A stretch of 32,000 nt of DNA, taken from positions 1,800,001 through 1,832,000 of the forward strand of contig OZ257143.1 in NCBI GenBank assembly GCA_965279305.1. The letters are read 5' to 3'. This document shows positions 7,147-16,307 of the stretch, one piece after another (the first letter of the stretch is position 1; each line of letters begins with the position of its first letter). Under the pieces are notes generated by a model. The model made no database searches. It saw nothing but the letters and a program-made list of their open reading frames with translations, and was not told the DNA's origin. The position numbers and the translations under genes were made by a program. This DNA comes from Gammaproteobacteria bacterium. GTDB taxonomy: Bacteria > Pseudomonadota > Gammaproteobacteria > JBIOEC01.

Positions 7147-7359
7147 TCAAACTTTCTTGAGGAAGCAGGTTTTTAATACTAAGTTTTTCACATCTTTAGT
7201 TCGACATTCTACTTCTTCACTATTCGACGTTAAATGAATACCTTTAATTAAAGTTCCTCTTTTTAAAGTAGTAGAAGTTCCTTTTACTTTTAAATCTTTA
7301 ATTAGCTGCACAGAATCACCTTCATTTAAAATCGCGCCATTACTATCTCGTGTATCCAT
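7147..7359 (-). CDS. PhnA/YjdM C-terminal-domain protein (stand-alone, lacks N-terminal zinc ribbon)
   Basis: The 70-aa product [39 protein letters not shown]...LKTCFLKK aligns by eye with the C-terminal half of E. coli YjdM ([39 protein letters not shown]...LKSEFVKK). A strong AGGAG SD lies 7 nt upstream of the ATG. Confidence 0.8.
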   Translation of the reverse strand: [70 protein letters not shown]

Positions 7360-7411: not shown

Positions 7412-7699
7412 GATTAGTTATCATTCTTAATTAAATTAACAGCAAATTACCTTGTTTTTTCAAAGTAAATGCTGGCTATAAGCTCTATATGTTGTGAATT
7501 ATTTATACTCATATCGCTATTTTTCTTTACTATCTATCTTTCTTGCTTTTAATATATTAAAATAACATGTGCTTAAGATAGTATGAAATGTTTCTAACAC
7601 ATTTTTCAGAGCATGTCGGTTTATCCGTCTTATTTAATATAAGGTAGTTGCAAACACAATTTAAAGAATGACTTTAGATTTATACGGGAGCTTGTAACT

Positions 7700-10600
7700 A
7701 TGTCGCGCGATCATAAAGATCTAGAAAATCAAAATTCGATTACTAATAAAAGTTTTAATGCGCTTCAATTTATTGCTTTACTTATTATAGGTGGTTTACT
7801 TACTGGCGTATCAATATCTTTCTTAACCACTGCTATTAATTCATTTGCACCTCGCCGTCCCAATGAAAATAATTCGGGTGATGACAATCCACTCAACCCA
7901 TTTCCCACTTTTGATAACGATGCAGAAGCTTTTGCTAATGAATTATCAAGAGCAGCCAGAAGCGCAACTGCGTGTGTTGATTACAGCAATGTCACCGCAT
8001 CCACTATATTAGCGACAGCAACCACCACTCAAATGGCCTGCCAAAATTCTGTTTTGAATCCACTCAATGGCCAAGTGTTTATGGTGTATTGCGATACACC
8101 TACTTCCGTGAAAGGAATAATGCTGAATGCTGATGGCAGTGTTTACAAACCTTCTTTTAATTTAACAGCAAACCCCACTGATGCTGAATATTTTCCTAAC
8201 GTAGAGTATGTAAATGATGTGGGAAATTATCGTGTATCAGGTGGCAGATATAATGCTACTCAAGCAGGCGTAGGCTTGTGGTACCGATATTTTGATGTTA
8301 ATGGAACAGCATTAGGAACTGAAACACCTTTATTCAAATTCGCGGGCGCGAATGTGTGCGCTTGGACGGTAGACAGTAACTCGCCTTATACCAACAATAG
8401 TGTGATCACTCAATTATGGGGAATAGCACAGCTATGTAACACAGGCAGTTATGCTCAATTATTTGTTTATCCTAGAGTGTGTGAAATTAGTGTAGCCGTT
8501 TGCTCAACAGCTGCCTACCAAATAACAACGCCTGGCGGATATTACGGTGAGCCTTCACTAAAGCTAACATCTGCTAACAATTCCACATTAATTTATGGAA
8601 CTCATTCAGCATATCCTACCGCAGGAAATGCCCAACAAGTGTACCAAGAAACATTTTCAATGGGCTCGCCTACGGGTTCGCTTCAAGTATTTGGTTCATC
8701 AGTGCATTACAATCCGATGACACTTACATTGCCGAATGGAAATAATTTTTCAGCAGCTCAAGCAAAACAAGGTGATGGCACATGGAGAATTGTTTTCTCC
8801 ACTAATAATGGACTATCCGTTCAAACATCGGAAACCATGCTTTTCAATAGTGGATACTCACAAACATTATCTTCTCTAGCATTAGAGTATGATATGAATA
8901 ACACTCCTTGGGTTGTTGTTACTATTGTTGAAAATAATCAAGTTAAAGTTGCATTTGTAAATGCAAACACAATGGCCGTTCGGTCTACACCTTATGCAGT
9001 TCCTACTTCATCCAATTTTGGTGCGGGATGGTCACAATCATCTGGCGCTGTTGTGCCCACGTCAACTAAAGATAAATTTTTTGTGCGCAGCACAGAAACG
9101 AATGGAAGCAATAATAAAGAAGTGCTTAACATCATTAATATGAATGATGCTTTAGTGGTAGCACCCACCAATTCTACTTTTACTCAGGCGGGTGGCGCCG
9201 TCAATTTGCCTATTGTTTTACAACGCGCAATCTATGCACCTGATGTATCTTATAGAGTAAGCCTTATCGTAACTCCCAATACTCTAGGCTACTCAGCTGG
9301 AACTTTGTTCAAGGTAAACTCGCCAGCTAATACGACAGTTATCACCACTTCTAATGGACTAAACTTTACCTCAGTAGGGGTAATAGCACTTAACAGCGCA
9401 TGCTTTCAATATCTCCCACCTACGAGCTTCACACAAGGAAGTGGTAGTAATTTAACTCGTGCAATAACCGATGTAACAGTAAGCTATACCATTACATCCA
9501 ACGGGAATGCTAATGGCGGATTGGTTAACATATTAACAGGCAACATTGGCTTAACTGCGCAAGAAGGCGCACATGCACCAACACTGTGGACAAATACTGC
9601 TGGTTTATCAGTTAAACAAAACATTGCGAAAACACTGACATTAAATGATATTAATGCATTAGGCGATGCGTTTAGCGATGACACAACTACCATTTTTAAT
9701 ATTTCTAATACCACACCATCTTCAGTAACACTATTATTAAATGGTGCTGCGGTTACACAATTTTCTCGTGCCGATCTAGTAGCAGGTAATGTTGCTGTTT
9801 TAGTGACTCAATGCACTACCACCTTCCCTACTATTAATTTTACGGTTACCGCTGATGGTTATACCGTTTCAGGATCGTTACCGGTTACTACTTTATATGG
9901 TGCCCCTAATGTTGCAGCGGCGAGCTTGCTCATTTCAAGTAGCGCTTCTGGTGTGATGAGTGCGAATTTACCTTACCAATTAGTAGTAAATTATTGCGGA
10001 AATTCTAGCGCTACTTTTACTGGCTCTGTGAAATCTTCAGGCATTACGTATTACACATTACCTTATTCAAATGCACCTGTTAATCTTTATGTGACACAGT
10101 CCGATCCTGTCACTGGCATTTTATCTTTTACAGCCGCACAGCTAAGCGGAAGTCAATTGGCTCTTATGCCATCAGGCTTACAAGCCAATGCTACCTATTA
10201 TGCATATGCACCTATGTCATACACTTATACCTTAACAACACCTGAAGGCGTAACAAGCGTTACCTCTGGTAGTGTTGTGGATGGCAGAACAGCAACGCCA
10301 CCTACACCAACACTCAGTACCAATAAAGTCACACTCACACAAGCAGAAACGGTGGTGGGAAGCACTATTTTAGCCGCTACGTTTAGCAGCGGTGGATTAG
10401 ATCCTAATTTTATTAGTTTTGATATTTCTAATTTAAATGATTGTTACTTTACTTTAGATGGAGTGCAAGTTACTACCGTTACACAAACGCAAGTAAATAC
10501 ATTCTCTAGAGTAAAACTCGAAGTGACAGGCCCTAATCCTTCTTATTGGGTATCAGCGCGTTATATTAATTCAGCTACAGCTCCAGCTGCAGCATCAGTC

Positions 10601-13210
10601 ACCAATAATATTCCTGTACCAACCACAGTGGCACCTTCAACGGCAACACCCACAACAGCAACGCCAACAACTGCAACACCAACAACAGCAGTTGCTAGTT
10701 CTGCGCCACCAACAGCTGCTCCTACCACATTACCACCGGCTCCTATATTAAATTTCAATAATTTAATTGCCTATATATGGGACGGCGTTAGTTATGTATT
10801 AGGTTTAGGACCAGACAATATTGCTGGTAGTTATCCTGGCAATGGTGATCCCGATAATCTTCGTGCGATTATTAGCAGTCAATCCGGTATTAGTTTTTCA
10901 AAAACTAATTTTACTTTAGGTGAACTTTTTGATGGCGTAAATGCCACAGTCACCGCTAGTAGTATTTTTTACAGAGTAAAAATTTGCGATCCCGATTTTC
11001 CAACGGTTTGCTCAACCAATAGTCCTGCTAGTATTTCATATATAGCAAGGCCCACTAATGCTCCAACAGCAATAGCAAGCTCCGCTCCACCTACAGTTGC
11101 AGCTACTTCTGCTGCACCTACGGCAGAAGCAACTTCCGCTGTGCCGACAGTAGAAGCTACTTCTGCGGTGCCTACGGCACAATCAACTTCTGCTGTACCT
11201 ACGGCAGAAGCTACTTCTGCGGTGCCTACGGCAGAAGCTACTTCTGCGGTGCCTACGGCAGAGGCTACTTCTGCTGTGCCTACAGCACAATCAACTTCTG
11301 CGGTGCCTACGGCAGAAGCTACTTCTGCGGTGCCTACGGCACAATCAACTTCTGCTGTACCGACAGTAGAAGCAACAGGATCGCCTACAGGTGCTCCAAC
11401 CAATACAGCAGCCCCAACCGTGATACTAACGGCTGCACCTAGAACAGCACCCGATATTAGTTTTAATGCTTTCAACGTAACGGCATTGAATCAACTGTTA
11501 CCTTATGGTGTAGCAAATATTCAAGCGGCTGCTATCTATCATTCTTTTGATGAATTAGTTTTTTATTTTAGTCGGATAGTGGGAGGTGTTTTTTACACAG
11601 GTCCTGTTCCCATTACCATGCTGAATAATGTGACTGCAGCCATTACCGGGCTGCAAATTTTGCAAGGATTAATTCAAATAAAAGTCCTTCAAGATGCATT
11701 TACTTACGCTATTACCGCGTGTACTCCTTATGAACTCTGTTCATCTCCAGAAGATGCAGCTGTTTCTTTTTATTTACCCACAGCAGCACCCACTACTCCA
11801 AGTCCATCGGGAGCCACGCCACAGCAGTCAATAGGCGATTGGATTGTTGCTAATTATGCTATTTGGATTGGCCCCGTCGCTGCGCTTCTCTTCTTTGTAG
11901 CCGGTGTTGTTTTTTGGAGAATTCGCAGAACCGCAAAAGCAAAAGACACGCTGCTTTTATTCCAACAAGTATCAAGCCTTTCCCTAGGAAATGCTACGCA
12001 AACAAACCGTTTGTCTATGTATCTTGATCAAAATCGTGTTGCAAAAGAGCTAATAGCGGCTATTGAGAGAATCGGCGGGCTAAAGATTAATATACAAGAT
12101 GATAGAGAAATAACACGGATACTCGAGTGGCTTGATACTGTTAGACTGGTGTTTAGTGGCCCAACCATTTCAAAAGATAAACGCTTCAAAAGTTTTGATG
12201 CAGAAATTATTTCTACGCTGGTTGAACAACACCCAGACGAAGATGCTTTCGACCGACTGAGAGTGGTATTTGATGTTTTAATATCACATATTATGTATGG
12301 TCCTTCTTTAAGTAGAGGCGAATTAGTTTCACTTACCTTTGAACTACTCGAAAATAGAAGAAGGCTTTCTGCTGCGGTACAGTTTGTGACAGAAAAATAT
12401 ATTTTCAATAATGCGCCTACCCAAGAAGGCCGAGATAGTTATGAAATGAATGAGATGGGTGCTGGGGTTAATGGCGATAGTCCAAGTTCTTCTGTACGAA
12501 AAGCCGCCGCCTCTTCCAGTAGCGGATCGGATGTTGCTCCTGTTAATAGCTCTACTAATCTATTAGGATCACAACCACCTTCAAGAGCCGGCAGTAACTC
12601 AAGTAATCGTCCGCCTAGTGTTAGAATTGAGCCACCGCCGCCTGAATATACGGCGCATGAAATAGAAACACCTACCCTTTCTCAACCAGAACTTCTTGCA
12701 CCTACCAATGCAGCCACACCTGTTAAAGAACGTAGACCTGCTCCTAAACCTCCAAGCGAGGCAACCGTAGGATTTGCGGGTGGTAGAGAAGAAGCAGCTG
12801 CACTTGCAGCGATGATGCAAGAAATGCCTGTTAGCCCTGAACCCACCGTACTGGCTGCTCCACCAAAAACAGTTGCATTGCCTTTTGAACCTCGTGACGA
12901 GGTATCGAGAGAAGAATTCAACAAGTTATTTGATGAATCAGATATTGCAGCTCACCAACGAGCTCAAGCGTTATCATCAACAGCACCCAAACCTGCTGTT
13001 TCTAAAATAAGAGTAGGCACTTCACCTGCTTATGGAAATGTTCGTCCGGCAGATGGAACAGTGGTTAAACAAGCAACCCAAGCGAGCAATGACACTATTT
13101 TTAATACAGTGCCTAGCGGCCTGGTAAGACAACCCACAACAGGCTCAGCACCACCGCCGACAGCACCTAAACCTCGTGTTGCAGTAGCGGGAAGACCAGC
13201 AGCGTCGTAA
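7700..13210 (+). CDS. Giant (1836 aa) mucin-like membrane protein of unknown function with two hydrophobic helices, Pro/Thr/Ser/Ala tandem repeats and a proline-rich cytoplasmic tail
   Basis: This is an uninterrupted 5.5-kb ORF, with GGGAG about 9 nt upstream of the ATG and a 340-bp AT-rich upstream region. Composition and architecture were read from the translation (see findings). I recognise no family. Confidence 0.88.
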   Translation: MSRDHKDLENQNSITNKSFNALQFIALLIIGGLLTGVSISFLTTAINSFAPRRPNENNSGDDNPLNPFPTFDNDAEAFANELSRAARSATACVDYSNVTASTILATATTTQMACQNSVLNPLNGQVFMVYCDTPTSVKGIMLNADGSVYKPSFNLTANPTDAEYFPNVEYVNDVGNYRVSGGRYNATQAGVGLWYRYFDVNGTALGTETPLFKFAGANVCAWTVDSNSPYTNNSVITQLWGIAQLCNTGSYAQLFVYPRVCEISVAVCSTAAYQITTPGGYYGEPSLKLTSANNSTLIYGTHSAYPTAGNAQQVYQETFSMGSPTGSLQVFGSSVHYNPMTLTLPNGNNFSAAQAKQGDGTWRIVFSTNNGLSVQTSETMLFNSGYSQTLSSLALEYDMNNTPWVVVTIVENNQVKVAFVNANTMAVRSTPYAVPTSSNFGAGWSQSSGAVVPTSTKDKFFVRSTETNGSNNKEVLNIINMNDALVVAPTNSTFTQAGGAVNLPIVLQRAIYAPDVSYRVSLIVTPNTLGYSAGTLFKVNSPANTTVITTSNGLNFTSVGVIALNSACFQYLPPTSFTQGSGSNLTRAITDVTVSYTITSNGNANGGLVNILTGNIGLTAQEGAHAPTLWTNTAGLSVKQNIAKTLTLNDINALGDAFSDDTTTIFNISNTTPSSVTLLLNGAAVTQFSRADLVAGNVAVLVTQCTTTFPTINFTVTADGYTVSGSLPVTTLYGAPNVAAASLLISSSASGVMSANLPYQLVVNYCGNSSATFTGSVKSSGITYYTLPYSNAPVNLYVTQSDPVTGILSFTAAQLSGSQLALMPSGLQANATYYAYAPMSYTYTLTTPEGVTSVTSGSVVDGRTATPPTPTLSTNKVTLTQAETVVGSTILAATFSSGGLDPNFISFDISNLNDCYFTLDGVQVTTVTQTQVNTFSRVKLEVTGPNPSYWVSARYINSATAPAAASVTNNIPVPTTVAPSTATPTTATPTTATPTTAVASSAPPTAAPTTLPPAPILNFNNLIAYIWDGVSYVLGLGPDNIAGSYPGNGDPDNLRAIISSQSGISFSKTNFTLGELFDGVNATVTASSIFYRVKICDPDFPTVCSTNSPASISYIARPTNAPTAIASSAPPTVAATSAAPTAEATSAVPTVEATSAVPTAQSTSAVPTAEATSAVPTAEATSAVPTAEATSAVPTAQSTSAVPTAEATSAVPTAQSTSAVPTVEATGSPTGAPTNTAAPTVILTAAPRTAPDISFNAFNVTALNQLLPYGVANIQAAAIYHSFDELVFYFSRIVGGVFYTGPVPITMLNNVTAAITGLQILQGLIQIKVLQDAFTYAITACTPYELCSSPEDAAVSFYLPTAAPTTPSPSGATPQQSIGDWIVANYAIWIGPVAALLFFVAGVVFWRIRRTAKAKDTLLLFQQVSSLSLGNATQTNRLSMYLDQNRVAKELIAAIERIGGLKINIQDDREITRILEWLDTVRLVFSGPTISKDKRFKSFDAEIISTLVEQHPDEDAFDRLRVVFDVLISHIMYGPSLSRGELVSLTFELLENRRRLSAAVQFVTEKYIFNNAPTQEGRDSYEMNEMGAGVNGDSPSSSVRKAAASSSSGSDVAPVNSSTNLLGSQPPSRAGSNSSNRPPSVRIEPPPPEYTAHEIETPTLSQPELLAPTNAATPVKERRPAPKPPSEATVGFAGGREEAAALAAMMQEMPVSPEPTVLAAPPKTVALPFEPRDEVSREEFNKLFDESDIAAHQRAQALSSTAPKPAVSKIRVGTSPAYGNVRPADGTVVKQATQASNDTIFNTVPSGLVRQPTTGSAPPPTAPKPRVAVAGRPAAS
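7760..7837 (+). other. Predicted N-terminal transmembrane/signal-anchor helix of the giant protein (aa 21-46)
   Basis: The segment ALQFIALLIIGGLLTGVSISFLTTAI is 26 uncharged hydrophobic residues. It is followed by SFA-PRRP; Pro at +1 argues against signal peptidase I cleavage. Confidence 0.6.
10640..10684 (+). repeat. In-frame 15-bp tandem repeat x3 (TATPT) inside a Pro/Thr/Ala linker
   Basis: The DNA reads acagcaacaccc / acaacagcaacgcca / acaactgcaacacca, encoding TATPT TATPT TATPT. It is embedded in the PT-rich stretch aa 961-1016 (10580-10747). Confidence 0.8.
11102..11371 (+). repeat. In-frame 27-bp tandem repeat, about 10 copies (consensus ATSAVPTAE / STSAVPTAQ)
   Basis: The units are near-identical, e.g. 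gctacttctgcggtgcctacggcagaa versus tcaacttctgctgtacctacggcacaa. Reading aa 1135-1224 gives ten contiguous 9-aa units with no spacers. Confidence 0.95.
11840..11917 (+). other. Predicted second transmembrane helix of the giant protein (aa 1381-1406) with a basic stop-transfer
   Basis: The hydrophobic segment WIVANYAIWIGPVAALLFFVAGVVFW is followed immediately by RIRRTAKAK. Confidence 0.75.
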
Positions 13211-13211
13211 C

Positions 13212-14006
13212 TTAAAACCTTACGCCGCCGCCAAAGCCGATGTAGTGAGAATATCCTTCGAGATCACCGCTCATACGCCAGCCGTATTCTAAATCGACTT
13301 CAATATTGTCGGTAATTAAATATTGAATACCGCCATCACCATTATATCCACTATTTTCATCAGGTCCTGTTTTGGTTTGACCATAAAATTCCACATAGAG
13401 CTGTGTCATTTCGGCTATTTTCCACGCAAATACAATATCAGGGTTAAAACTATTAAAACGTTCACTACCGTCATTAGGTGCTGTTATCTCAGAACTAAAA
13501 CCTAACATGAGTGTGGCTGAAAAAGAATCGGTAAAATTATAACTTGCAATGGCATTAAGAGTGGTTCCCCATTCATCAGTTCCAAAATTATCATTGCCAC
13601 TTGGTGGAGTGGCATATGCTTCTAATGCGTAAATTAAGCTATTATAAATAGGAAACTGATGTTTAAAAGCCATACTGGTAGCACTTGATCCCGTAATAAC
13701 ATCTTCGTGATCAGGATTTTCATGAATATAATTGGGTGCAACTACCAAAAATTCATTACGATTTGGTAATCCAAAACGAATTACCGCTTCGGGAAAATTT
13801 TGGCTATGCCCATCAATAGAGTGTAATTCCAAATATTGATACCCTACTTCTATCACTACGTTTCCGGGTTCAACAGAGCACGGGCTATCTAATACACTAG
13901 GGCGATTTAAAAGCGCTAATAAATCAGCACAAGAAGCCTCCACTATTTCATCGGCAAATGAAATACTGGGCAATAAAAGAAACAGTAAGCTTATTTTTTT
14001 TAACAT
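13212..14006 (-). CDS. Outer-membrane beta-barrel channel, MetA-pathway-of-phenol-degradation (Phenol_MetA_deg) family-like
   Basis: It has a signal peptide MLKKISLLFLLLPSISFA-DE and an N-terminal LNRPSVLDSPCSVEPGNVVIEVGY motif resembling the family's DRPG...G...E.G signature. Alternating beta-strand patterns and a C-terminal aromatic residue (GGGVRF) fit an OMP. An AAGGA SD is present. Confidence 0.75.
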   Translation of the reverse strand: MLKKISLLFLLLPSISFADEIVEASCADLLALLNRPSVLDSPCSVEPGNVVIEVGYQYLELHSIDGHSQNFPEAVIRFGLPNRNEFLVVAPNYIHENPDHEDVITGSSATSMAFKHQFPIYNSLIYALEAYATPPSGNDNFGTDEWGTTLNAIASYNFTDSFSATLMLGFSSEITAPNDGSERFNSFNPDIVFAWKIAEMTQLYVEFYGQTKTGPDENSGYNGDGGIQYLITDNIEVDLEYGWRMSGDLEGYSHYIGFGGGVRF

Positions 14007-14030
14007 GTAAAATCCTTTTTACTTAGCTAC

Positions 14031-15722
14031 TTATTGTGTGAATTGTGTCATAAACCTTTTTAAATGAATAGTAGATAAACTATCAGAGCAATACGCCAAA
14101 TATCCATCCGGTCGTATTAAAAAAAGCCCCGTAGGCACATACTCACTTAGACCATAATTTTCAAATATTTGATTTGATTCTGCTTGAATTATTCTATCAT
14201 CAGGCCCTGTTAAAGAATGCGCAATAAAATGGGTTTTAACTGGCAAGCCAATTTGTGAAGGTAAACCACGTAAATCATTACTAATCGATTGAATTTCTTC
14301 TTTGGAAAGCGATTTTTTCGATAAAGCCATCACATGAAAAATATACCCTTTGGTTAAATCAAACACATCTAGGTATTGGCTAATAGTGGCATTAGGCGCT
14401 CTATACCCCGCTCTTATTTTTTTAGGAAAATGTTTTTTGGCGGATTCAGAAATATTATTCTCTAAAAAAGCATTATCATGGTAATGAATACCTAATTGAG
14501 ATACAAAATGGAATATGACGGATCGTGCTTTATGACTTTTAGAAATCAAACGTATAATATTAGGAAATATAAAATTACGGATTCTATCAATCCATTTATT
14601 TTGCGAGCTAACAATAGAAAACAAACGATCGGTATATTTTAATAATTTTTCACCTATTCGTTTTCGCTCTGAATCATAACTCTCTAATAAGGCTATATTT
14701 CCCTTATTTTTTAAAGCGACAATTATCTTCCAGCTTAAATTGGCTGCATCTTGAATACCGGTATTCATTCCTTGCGCACCTACTGGACTATGAATATGCG
14801 CCGCATCACCTGCCACAAAAGCTCTTCCCACTCGATAATTTTTTACCCCACGATGATGTATTCGATAGCGTGAAGTCCAAACAGGATCAGAAAAAGTGGC
14901 CGGAATATACGAAGCATCATTATAGGCTTTTTGCACGTCTTCTAAAGTAACTGGTGTGGCGGTAGTGGCTTGTTTTTCTGCTTCTGTATCATTTTCCGTA
15001 GAAAAAGGTTTAATAGCAAACATTCTTCCCAAGGCTTTTCCTTTTAAGGGAAAATATAATGCCAACGATTGATCACGCATAAAAATCTTAATATGAGAGT
15101 AATCTAGTGGCCAATCAATAGAGCAATCGGCCAACATAAAGGTTTGTACATAAGAAGCACCTTCAAAATCCAAGTCTAATTTTGATCTCACTATACTATG
15201 AGCACCATCAGCGCCAATAATATATTTACATTCAATTTTTTCTTGTTTCGCTGATTTATTATCTGGTTTATTTTTTACAGTAACGGTGACTTTTTCGTTG
15301 GTTTGAGATAAATCTACTACTTCCGTGCTGCGTTCAATGTAGACGCCATTTTTTGAGAGATATTCACTAAGTATTTTTTCAATTTCAGATTGTGGGCACA
15401 TAAAAAGAAAAGCATATGGCGTATTCATATTGCCAATATCATCTAAATCCACTTGCGCTACCATGCCTTGTTTGGTAAAAACTTGTAGCCCCGGTGCAAT
15501 TACGCCGCGTTTTAAAAACTCTTCTATCAGGCCAATTTTTTGTAATAATTCTAGAGAACGAGAATGCAAAACAAACGCACGTGTTTCGTGCGCTTGCTGC
15601 TCTTGTTTATCAACAATACGAAAAGATATTCCCGACTGCTGCAATAAAACCGCCGCCATTAATCCTGTAGGGCCAGCACCCACAACAACTACATCAGTGT
15701 TGGATTGGGTTAAATCATTCAC
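14031..15722 (-). CDS. FAD-dependent aromatic-ring monooxygenase (PheA/TfdB/MhpA-type, FAD_binding_3) with a C-terminal thioredoxin-like dimerisation domain
   Basis: Motifs are the dinucleotide fold VVVVGAGPTGLMAAVLLQQSGISFRIVDK, CKYIIGADGAHSIVR (DG motif) and GRAFVAGDAAHIHSPVGAQGMNTGIQDAANLSWK (GD motif). The 563-aa length is typical of phenol/3-HPP hydroxylases. The start is GTG, with a GGTGGAG SD 9 nt upstream. Confidence 0.9.
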   Translation of the reverse strand: MNDLTQSNTDVVVVGAGPTGLMAAVLLQQSGISFRIVDKQEQQAHETRAFVLHSRSLELLQKIGLIEEFLKRGVIAPGLQVFTKQGMVAQVDLDDIGNMNTPYAFLFMCPQSEIEKILSEYLSKNGVYIERSTEVVDLSQTNEKVTVTVKNKPDNKSAKQEKIECKYIIGADGAHSIVRSKLDLDFEGASYVQTFMLADCSIDWPLDYSHIKIFMRDQSLALYFPLKGKALGRMFAIKPFSTENDTEAEKQATTATPVTLEDVQKAYNDASYIPATFSDPVWTSRYRIHHRGVKNYRVGRAFVAGDAAHIHSPVGAQGMNTGIQDAANLSWKIIVALKNKGNIALLESYDSERKRIGEKLLKYTDRLFSIVSSQNKWIDRIRNFIFPNIIRLISKSHKARSVIFHFVSQLGIHYHDNAFLENNISESAKKHFPKKIRAGYRAPNATISQYLDVFDLTKGYIFHVMALSKKSLSKEEIQSISNDLRGLPSQIGLPVKTHFIAHSLTGPDDRIIQAESNQIFENYGLSEYVPTGLFLIRPDGYLAYCSDSLSTIHLKRFMTQFTQ

Positions 15723-15728
15723 CAGACA

Positions 15729-16307
15729 TTACTCCACCTTCACATCAGAAACGACACCATCAGCTACGGTTACAACGGTACTAGGAACCGTAGGATCAAA
15801 TGTATACGTATATTTAATGACGCGAATGGGCTGTTGGGGTGTACCCTCATTTAGCACCTCAGTAAAACTAGGATCGCCACAACGGTTACGCACCTCTTCC
15901 ATGGTATTGCCTCGTTTTACTTCTTGGCGTGACTGAGGCACAGGGCCGCAAAAACTGTAAGATTCATAAGGACCACTGCTAGAAGAAGGTGAATAAATCA
16001 GATTCACTTTTCCATCTATAAATTCTACAGAATAGCGCGCGCCTTGCGATAGGCCACTAATAGGTGTTTGATCATTGTCTTCTAACATATTAGCAATATA
16101 GTACCAACGCACTTTTTCACCTTTATTGGGCGTTGGCTGATCATATTGTTCAGTGGTAGTGGGTTCACCGCAATCCGCCATTAGTTGATCGGCTGTTTCG
16201 CCAATAGTGACATAAGCACCAGGAGCACCACACGGGATCGCTTGTATTGCCCAGGCTAATGGAGAAAATAAAGTGCAAAGAAGTAAAATAATAGGTTGTA
16301 CTTTCAT
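15729..16307 (-). CDS. Secreted/periplasmic protein with two tandem Cys-containing modules (DUF2845-like by recollection)
   Basis: The signal peptide is MKVQPIILLLCTLFSPLAWA-IQ. Two internally homologous modules each carry CG...G(E/N)T..(Q/E).....CG(E/D)P...(W/K)Y(Y/T)...(D)G(K/V)V. A strong AAGGAAGGG SD is present. The stop is 6 nt from the monooxygenase start. Confidence 0.75.
   Translation of the reverse strand: MKVQPIILLLCTLFSPLAWAIQAIPCGAPGAYVTIGETADQLMADCGEPTTTEQYDQPTPNKGEKVRWYYIANMLEDNDQTPISGLSQGARYSVEFIDGKVNLIYSPSSSSGPYESYSFCGPVPQSRQEVKRGNTMEEVRNRCGDPSFTEVLNEGTPQQPIRVIKYTYTFDPTVPSTVVTVADGVVSDVKVE

Follow-up and report, generated by a model that had tools for sequence, protein, structure and literature searches.

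A hypervariable mosaic gene encoding a predicted two-helix membrane protein of an orphan gammaproteobacterial family

Bacterial sensor kinases and chemoreceptors share a canonical topology in which a short N-terminus is followed by a first transmembrane helix, a periplasmic domain, a second transmembrane helix, and a cytoplasmic domain. Repeats of the Pfam family Cadherin_3 (PF16184) occur, for example, in CSPG4/NG2, in FRAS1/FREM, and in some large bacterial surface proteins, and CSPG4 itself is large, crosses the membrane once, and has a proline-rich tail. Here we describe a gene that can be set beside these systems, located in a 32,000-nucleotide stretch of gammaproteobacterial DNA (the window: positions 1,800,001 to 1,832,000 of contig OZ257143.1, assembly GCA_965279305.1). 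This target gene is the longest open reading frame (ORF) of the window (7700..13210, plus strand, ATG start) and encodes 1,836 aa plus a stop. A first-pass annotation had described the anatomy of its product, and this description is borne out: two hydrophobic helices, a Cys-bearing and charge-poor middle between them, Pro/Thr/Ala/Ser (PT) stalks, a basic stop-transfer sequence, and a charged tail. The gene is genuine and not a pseudogene, because its ORF is open in both genomes in which it occurs and the ratio of nonsynonymous to synonymous divergence (dN/dS) is 0.18-0.5 in most regions; no disruption was seen in the second assembly, where the orthologous ORF is intact.

An exhaustive phmmer search with aa 47-960, covering 1.84 billion cluster representatives, returned the query and one other protein, P0002 (E 3e-203; 1,794 aa as called), which is encoded on a 21-kb Logan contig, L001. 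Since the gene order on this contig matches that of the window exactly, from the aminotransferase gene through the RasGEF gene, P0002 is the ortholog in a close relative. No further family members were found in GTDB species genomes, JGI metagenomes, or IMG/VR, among plasmids and phages (tblastn), or in PHROGs, and neither the window nor L001 holds a paralog. The target family is an orphan with two known members and is lineage-restricted. The earlier description of the head as matching nothing known agrees with this single syntenic ortholog, and the phmmer, GTDB, and JGI scans likewise revealed no close homologues in free-living bacteria. A word-indexed search with the whole protein returned the query alone, and exact sequence look-ups of the target and of three window proteins retrieved no record. 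Word-indexed searches with two-sequence alignments of the tail and of the juxtamembrane-to-helical region did not recover the query itself and are uninformative; low-complexity words probably flooded their candidate lists. The tail was compared with Pfam, NCBIfam, and PDB, the exhaustive search covering aa 47-960. No sign of recent foreign origin is seen: codon usage is native, and the target has a GC content at third codon positions (GC3) of 0.27, a value that falls inside the spread of the other genes in the window (0.21-0.43, with nine of the twelve at 0.25-0.36).

The divergence comparison concerns two alleles, those of the window and of L001. Between these genomes, flanking proteins share 86-99.6% identity and the upstream intergenic DNA is 86% identical, but the target protein is only ~48-56% identical, with a nonsynonymous divergence (dN) of 0.37 against 0.002-0.055 in its neighbours. 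Its dN/dS is lowest in the juxtamembrane module (0.18), lies at 0.25-0.5 in most other regions, and peaks at 0.76 across helix 2 (aa 1361-1410); the neighbours show values of 0.01-0.11. This divergence is distributed in blocks: nucleotide identity is 40-55% over aa 181-600, 781-870, and 1381-1470, the last of which includes helix 2, and 80-92% over aa 691-720, 1201-1350, 1561-1650, and 1801-1830. The change at the membrane is abrupt, in that helix 2 and the first 60 tail residues (aa 1381-1470; window 11840-12100) show ~48% nucleotide identity directly after a module at 80-92%, and the hydrophobicity of helix 2 is kept between the alleles whereas its sequence is not. Furthermore, the module at aa 1017-1116, with PT stalks on both sides, exists in the window allele only.

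Synonymous sites separate the two kinds of block. When 4-fold degenerate sites were counted only in codons for the same amino acid within solidly aligned stretches (at least five of seven identities), 55 of 88 differed in the variable segments aa 47-620 and 741-1250 (0.625, saturation being ~0.71), against 326 of 1379 (0.236) in neighbouring genes (Fisher P = 9e-14). In the conserved segments aa 621-740, 1251-1360, and 1591-1836, 50 of 168 differed (0.30), which is not significantly different from the neighbours, and the block that holds the Cadherin_3 candidate module described below shows 0.33, matching the genome backbone. The target gene is a hypervariable mosaic in which these three conserved segments share the age of the backbone. 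The variable segments are near synonymous saturation, and therefore parts of the gene are far older than the backbone; very divergent alleles have been either imported by recombination or long maintained. With saturated synonymous sites beside backbone-age blocks within one gene, the mosaic provides a clean example of allele-level recombination.

Both helices proposed in the first-pass annotation (aa 21-46 and 1381-1406) pass two hydropathy scales, and the ortholog shows a similar pattern. On the Kyte-Doolittle scale with a 19-residue window, values above 1.6 occur at aa 18-46 and 1381-1408 and nowhere else in the protein. Hessa sums, calculated with the scale values of Hessa 2005, are -1.6 kcal/mol for helix 1 and -0.05 kcal/mol for helix 2, every other segment scoring at least +5.7; the ortholog likewise has two insertion-competent segments, with sums of -0.04 and +1.9. 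The stop-transfer sequence RIRRTAKAK directly follows helix 2, as had been noted, and at least five basic residues follow this helix in both orthologs. The middle had been called almost free of K/R/D/E, which is overstated, as these residues make up 8.3% of aa 47-1380; the contrast with the tail (22.8%) is nevertheless real. By eye, the N-terminus has a polar stub of 20 residues ahead of a hydrophobic core of 26, and resembles an anchor more than a cleavable signal peptide of the usual kind. The two hydrophobic segments, the basic cluster after helix 2, and 11 conserved Cys residues in the middle support a predicted topology in which both termini would be cytoplasmic (N-in/C-in) and ~1,334 residues extracytoplasmic. 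Compared with bacterial two-helix receptors, the protein shares the helices flanking a predicted extracytoplasmic domain and the positive charge after the second helix. Because bacterial sensor kinases and chemoreceptors have the same topology, this layout is not diagnostic of eukaryotes.

The three PT stalks at aa 961-1016, 1117-1251, and 1359-1377 stand out by composition, at 76-84% P+T+A+S (values for each in Table 1) against ~30% in the stretches between them, so the earlier description of them stands. A 27-nt tandem repeat in ~10 copies (11101-11373) encodes stalk 2, and between the two alleles the stalk repeats vary both in their unit and in their number. All 15 Cys of the target lie between the helices, at aa 92-1347, and 11 of them are positionally conserved in the ortholog, with 114/131, 220/246, and 261/268 as the conserved Cys of the head; these middle-region residues may form disulfide bonds. 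The absence of Cys from the tail, also pointed out earlier, holds for the target but is not a strict rule, as the ortholog tail has one. As to glycosylation sequons, a hand count of roughly 25 proved accurate, with 24 N-x(not P)-S/T motifs in aa 47-1380, but the eukaryote-like enrichment that this might suggest is not found: composition-matched shuffles give 23.2 +/- 4.1 (P = 0.47), and 11 sequon columns (of 29 and 27) are common to both orthologs.

For the modules themselves there is one hint of a known family. Pfam Cadherin_3 matches aa 481-960 of the window protein at 18.5 bits (E 0.002) and the ortholog at 22.8 bits (E 9e-5, two stretches), with a gathering cut-off of 25.5 bits; the isolated modules score 18.2 and 15.8 bits. 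In both orthologs the match spans model positions 1-93 of 106, at aa ~627-720, which is a probable, if unproven, candidate for a beta-sandwich module. The statement that no Ig-like or cadherin-like repeats are recognisable thus needs softening in view of this near-full-length match, although the match is sub-threshold. Apart from this hint, Pfam and NCBIfam gave nothing for the target at E <= 10. The absence of the hallmarks of known giant adhesins and their secretion systems was confirmed, in that neither the whole protein nor its pieces gave a Pfam or NCBIfam match at threshold to autotransporter, two-partner secretion (TPS), RTX, LPXTG, or Big domains. PDB profile searches with the head, the tail, and the cadherin-like module gave no match. 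Two other resemblances were examined and rejected: a ricin-B-type lectin match of aa 202-348 to PDB 9tpe_B (E 0.0035) was lost with the two-sequence profile and was not seen with the ortholog, and a match of the helix 2/stop-transfer profile to the CD4 transmembrane region (E 0.025) is a trivial resemblance between helices.

The predicted cytoplasmic tail holds no HAMP, HisKA, HATPase, MCPsignal, GGDEF, or other Pfam domain. The motifs PPPPEYTAH and APKPP are conserved in both orthologs, and PTAP and YGNV are not. The C-termini, ...VAVAGRPAAS in the target and ...SAARPAAW in the ortholog, are not conserved either. Of the type IVB C-terminal signals looked for, the target has no hydrophobic residue among positions -3 to -1 and lacks both an E-block and FxxxLxxxK, and neither ortholog has ExxE in its last 250 residues.

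The reading that we favour, tentatively and at a little short of an even chance, is that the target is a rapidly diversifying, inner-membrane-anchored modular binding protein, the product of a lineage-restricted gene of a probably eukaryote-associated gammaproteobacterium; its fold, its binding function, and the location of its head (periplasm or surface) are predictions from the sequence. The protein would be inserted into the inner membrane by the Sec/SRP (signal recognition particle) route in a hairpin topology, with a short N-terminus inside, helix 1, ~1,334 extracytoplasmic residues, helix 2 with its basic stop-transfer sequence, and ~430 cytoplasmic residues. The extracytoplasmic part would be a chain of beta-rich modules with Cys pairs, one of them cadherin/CSPG-like, separated by flexible Pro/Thr/Ala/Ser spacers that tandem DNA repeats encode. 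These stalks may hold a variable binding head away from the inner membrane, and the conserved juxtamembrane module together with helix 2 may link the head, on the cytoplasmic side, to a helical domain and a proline-rich scaffold. The head, middle modules, stalks, and helix 2 would be exchanged, added, or removed as the gene recombines with very divergent alleles. Because of the mosaic hypervariability, it is reasonable to suppose that the outside part meets a changing partner, either an antagonist outside the cell or a ligand that itself varies (host, phage, or competitor).

Several points weigh against this reading. The Cadherin_3 score lies below the gathering cut-off in both orthologs, and a search for internal domain repeats by hhalign among nine sub-alignments found no significant pair (best E 0.013); several modules with an FTxAQL-type motif had been suspected by eye, which is supported neither by hhalign nor by a blastp self-comparison of the target, in which the PT repeats alone appear. 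AlphaFold2 models from the two-sequence alignment are unusable, both for aa 47-960 (all-beta, mean pLDDT 31.7) and for aa 1247-1600 (helical after the second helix, mean pLDDT 38.6). No cytoplasmic signalling or output domain was found in aa 1407-1836 in Pfam, NCBIfam, or PDB. An RR pair six residues after helix 1 mildly conflicts with the N-in orientation. To our knowledge, no route carries an inner-membrane-anchored ectodomain across the outer membrane, and if the head is periplasmic, it is hard to see how an external antagonist would select on it; the stalks by themselves, at ~210 residues, could reach further than a periplasm is wide. Finally, with two alleles, diversifying selection is not separable from relaxed constraint plus recombination.

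The length of the stalks, greater than the periplasm requires, is one of several features that would suit a surface or released adhesin, an alternative that we regard as unlikely. In this case the ectodomain would leave the periplasm and bind host or prey surfaces, either after cleavage near the juxtamembrane module and export (e.g., by type II secretion) or by an unknown crossing of the outer membrane. Extreme mosaic divergence of a sort known from exposed antigens, PT stalks built from tandem repeats with modules gained and lost, the cadherin-like hint, and a charge-poor T/S/N/A/V/G composition, which is typical of extracellular bacterial proteins, all point the same way. However, the target has no associated secretion-system gene, barrel partner, or sorting signal, no Pfam match links it to autotransporter, TPS, or RTX families, and nothing marks a cleavage site; the adjacent barrel gene is convergent and, on its own strand, comes immediately after an FAD mono-oxygenase gene, with which, rather than with the target, it probably belongs. 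Bolder still, and in our estimate improbable, is the idea of a new trans-envelope fibre, anchored by both helices in the inner membrane, whose stalks carry the hypervariable head through or beyond the outer membrane to reach the host, or of a host-membrane protein whose conserved PPxY tail recruits WW-domain ligases of the host. Delivery to a host membrane as a type IVB (Dot/Icm-like) transmembrane effector, with the tail PPxY/PxxP motifs engaging host WW or SH3 proteins, would be in keeping with the conserved PPPPEYTAH and APKPP, with a 1,484-aa RasGEF-domain protein 8 kb away, and with the two-helix plan, N-in/C-in being the commonest topology among type IV transmembrane effectors (PMC12981334). 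In about 80% of these proteins, however, the periplasmic loop is <30 aa long, and larger periplasmic domains hinder translocation (PMC12981334). The loop of the target is ~1,334 aa long with conserved Cys and so far exceeds this length, its non-conserved C-terminus shows none of the three kinds of signal, PTAP and YGNV vary between the orthologs, and the window contains no type IV secretion gene, which makes this account a long shot.

A host-derived or host-mimicking eukaryotic type-I glycoprotein was the leading idea of the first-pass annotation, and it is not supported. The overall plan does resemble that of mucin-type receptors, and the weak CD4 match mentioned above, trivial as it is, could be cited on this side. 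Cadherin_3/CSPG repeats and PPxY-bearing tails are likewise known in eukaryotic type-I proteins, CSPG4 and dystroglycan among them, which serves as a lead only. However, the 1.84 billion representatives contain no homolog of aa 47-960, eukaryotic or other, beyond the syntenic bacterial ortholog; sequons are at chance level and poorly conserved, GC3 and codon usage are native, the 26-residue N-terminal anchor behind a 20-residue polar stub is unlike a typical cleavable signal peptide, and the same topology is standard in bacteria, so that we consider a eukaryotic origin very improbable. Neutral decay would be another account, in which a low-complexity orphan without specific function drifts under relaxed constraint: dN/dS of 0.25-0.76 by region is well above the 0.01-0.11 of the neighbours, much of the sequence is of low complexity, and no family match was obtained. 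We nevertheless give it little probability, as a 5.5-kb ORF has been kept open in both genomes, the juxtamembrane module retains 84-94% identity at a dN/dS of 0.18, 11 Cys are conserved, and a 2.6-fold rise in synonymous divergence confined to some segments cannot come from relaxed constraint.

The features of the target gene and of two genes near it are collected in Table 1. The ortholog as called begins 29 codons further upstream (MSVYPSYLIQ...; L001 2019-2105, window counterpart 7613-7642). In the window the tenth codon of this extension is TAA (7640-7642), which closes the upstream frame in-frame, and the ortholog lacks this stop; the true start in both orthologs is therefore likely to be the conserved MSRDHKDLENQN, preceded by GGGAG.

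Table 1. Positions of target-gene features and of two nearby genes in the window; topology and module assignments are predictions.
Feature	Position	Strand	Remarks
Whole ORF	7700..13210	+	1,836 aa plus stop; orthologous ORF intact in L001
Shine-Dalgarno-like GGGAG	7686..7690	+	9 nt 5' of ATG; read from sequence
N-terminal polar stub, aa 1-20, predicted cytoplasmic	7700..7759	+	MSRDHKDLENQN identical in both orthologs; topology inferred
Hydrophobic helix 1, aa 21-46; signal anchor or possibly unusually long signal peptide	7760..7837	+	Hydropathy
Head, aa 47-480; orphan, predicted all-beta	7838..9139	+	Most divergent part (30-57% identity); synonymous sites saturated
Beta-module region, aa 481-960	9140..10579	+	Roughly four modules seen by eye; internal repeats not significant
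Cadherin_3 (CSPG-type cadherin-like) candidate module, aa 627-719	9578..9856	+	Sub-threshold Pfam PF16184; inside conserved block
PT stalk 1, aa 961-1016	10580..10747	+	84% P/T/A/S
Module aa 1017-1116 (Cys 1096/1104)	10748..11047	+	Absent from P0002
PT stalk 2, aa 1117-1251	11048..11452	+	9-aa units (ATSAVPTAE/Q); 76% P+T+A+S
Juxtamembrane module, aa 1252-1358 (Cys 1341/1347)	11453..11773	+	Most conserved part: 84-94% identity, dN/dS 0.18
PT stalk 3 and linker, aa 1359-1380	11774..11839	+	aa 1359-1377, 79% P+T+A+S
Hydrophobic helix 2, aa 1381-1406	11840..11917	+	Sequence ~33% conserved; hydrophobicity retained in ortholog
Basic stop-transfer RIRRTAKAK	11918..11944	+	Ortholog counterpart WRRKDKRRE
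Tail helical region, aa ~1416-1590	11945..12469	+	No family match; helices from low-confidence model
Ser/Pro/Ala-rich tail, probably disordered, aa 1591-1836	12470..13207	+	Composition
PPPPEY (PPxY) within PPPPEYTAH	12632..12649	+	PPPPEYTAH block identical in both orthologs
Outer-membrane barrel (Phenol_MetA_deg/OMP_b-brl)	13212-15722	-	Convergent; ends 1 nt from target stop
1,484-aa RasGEF-domain protein	21010-25464	-	Eukaryote-type RasGEF at aa 461-625, 47.9 bits vs cut-off 23.1; sole recognisable domain

Housekeeping genes surround the target, the RasGEF gene being the exception. On the upstream side are genes for RNase E, PlsC, UvrB, and an aminotransferase, together with a small YjdM-like ORF; downstream lie the convergent outer-membrane barrel, the FAD mono-oxygenase, a DUF2845/BamE-like protein, an ABC-F protein, tRNA-Asn, and a GT4/Wzm/Wzt cluster, followed further on by TrpS, DHFR, ThyA, Lgt, a Mur ligase, and PurL. 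Among the matches listed, the window UvrB is at most 75% identical to assorted Gammaproteobacteria, and the placement that we would claim goes to class level, Gammaproteobacteria. The small ORF between the aminotransferase gene and the target (7147-7359, minus strand; 70 aa) is YjdM/PhnA-like, and its L001 counterpart (1558-1770) has a Pfam YjdM match. On its own strand the barrel gene follows that of an FAD-dependent aromatic-ring hydroxylase; both products are 90-92% identical to their orthologs, lower than core genes, and look like an uptake-plus-hydroxylation pair unrelated to the target. The DUF2845/BamE-like protein of 192 aa (15729-16307, minus strand) has the highest synonymous divergence among the neighbours (dS 0.7; 4-fold 0.41). 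The tRNA-Asn (GTT) gene at 18131-18205 (plus strand), between the ABC-F gene and the GT4/Wzm/Wzt cluster, is the sole Rfam/ARAGORN match in the window.

The RasGEF-domain protein is likely to be a host-manipulating protein, and because of its presence in the window the source bacterium is probably eukaryote-associated. A literature search for RasGEF in Legionellales found nothing. The C-terminal 743 aa of this protein are 86% identical to its syntenic ortholog in L001.

If the head of the target is exposed to a host, the gene would encode a lineage-specific, recombining contact protein of a poorly known, probably intracellular bacterium, and would be a candidate host-range determinant as well as a natural strain-typing marker. 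The predicted anchoring of the target fits no described display route for large adhesins in diderm bacteria. The location of the head would therefore either reveal a new display route or define an unusually large periplasmic receptor, and a trans-envelope fibre or host-membrane delivery, if true, would be a mode without described precedent in diderm bacteria.

Among known systems, bacterial two-helix receptors, including periplasmic-sensor histidine kinases and methyl-accepting chemotaxis proteins, are alike in topology and in the basic cluster after the second helix, but the periplasmic part of the target is ~ten times larger, modular, and equipped with mucin-like stalks, and its tail has no output domain. 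To CSPG-type cadherin-like proteins the link is through PF16184, nearly the whole model of which is matched by both orthologs, including a motif like F-[ST]-x-A-D-L-x-A-G-N-V; the target differs from them in scoring below 25.5 bits, in having one or two such modules only, and in showing no PDB match and no significant internal repeat. PEP-CTERM/exosortase substrates and PGF-CTERM S-layer glycoproteins likewise combine a Thr/Pro-rich stretch, a hydrophobic helix, and a basic cluster. Their signals sit at the extreme C-terminus, whereas 430 residues follow the helix in the target, which has no PEP or PGF motif.

Type IV transmembrane effectors of Legionella and Coxiella share with the target the two-helix N-in/C-in plan, a tail with a eukaryote-like linear motif, and the vicinity of a eukaryote-like gene, but their loops are usually <30 aa long, against ~1,334 aa here, and the target is without a C-terminal secretion signal. 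Eukaryotic mucin-type receptors such as dystroglycan, CD43, and amoebal adhesion receptors resemble it in the Cys-containing head, the PT stalks, the membrane-proximal helix with its basic stop-transfer sequence, and the PPxY tail. The target is set apart from these receptors by the lack of a sequence homolog, by chance-level sequons, by bacterial codon usage, by a syntenic chromosomal locus, and by its anchor-like N-terminal helix.

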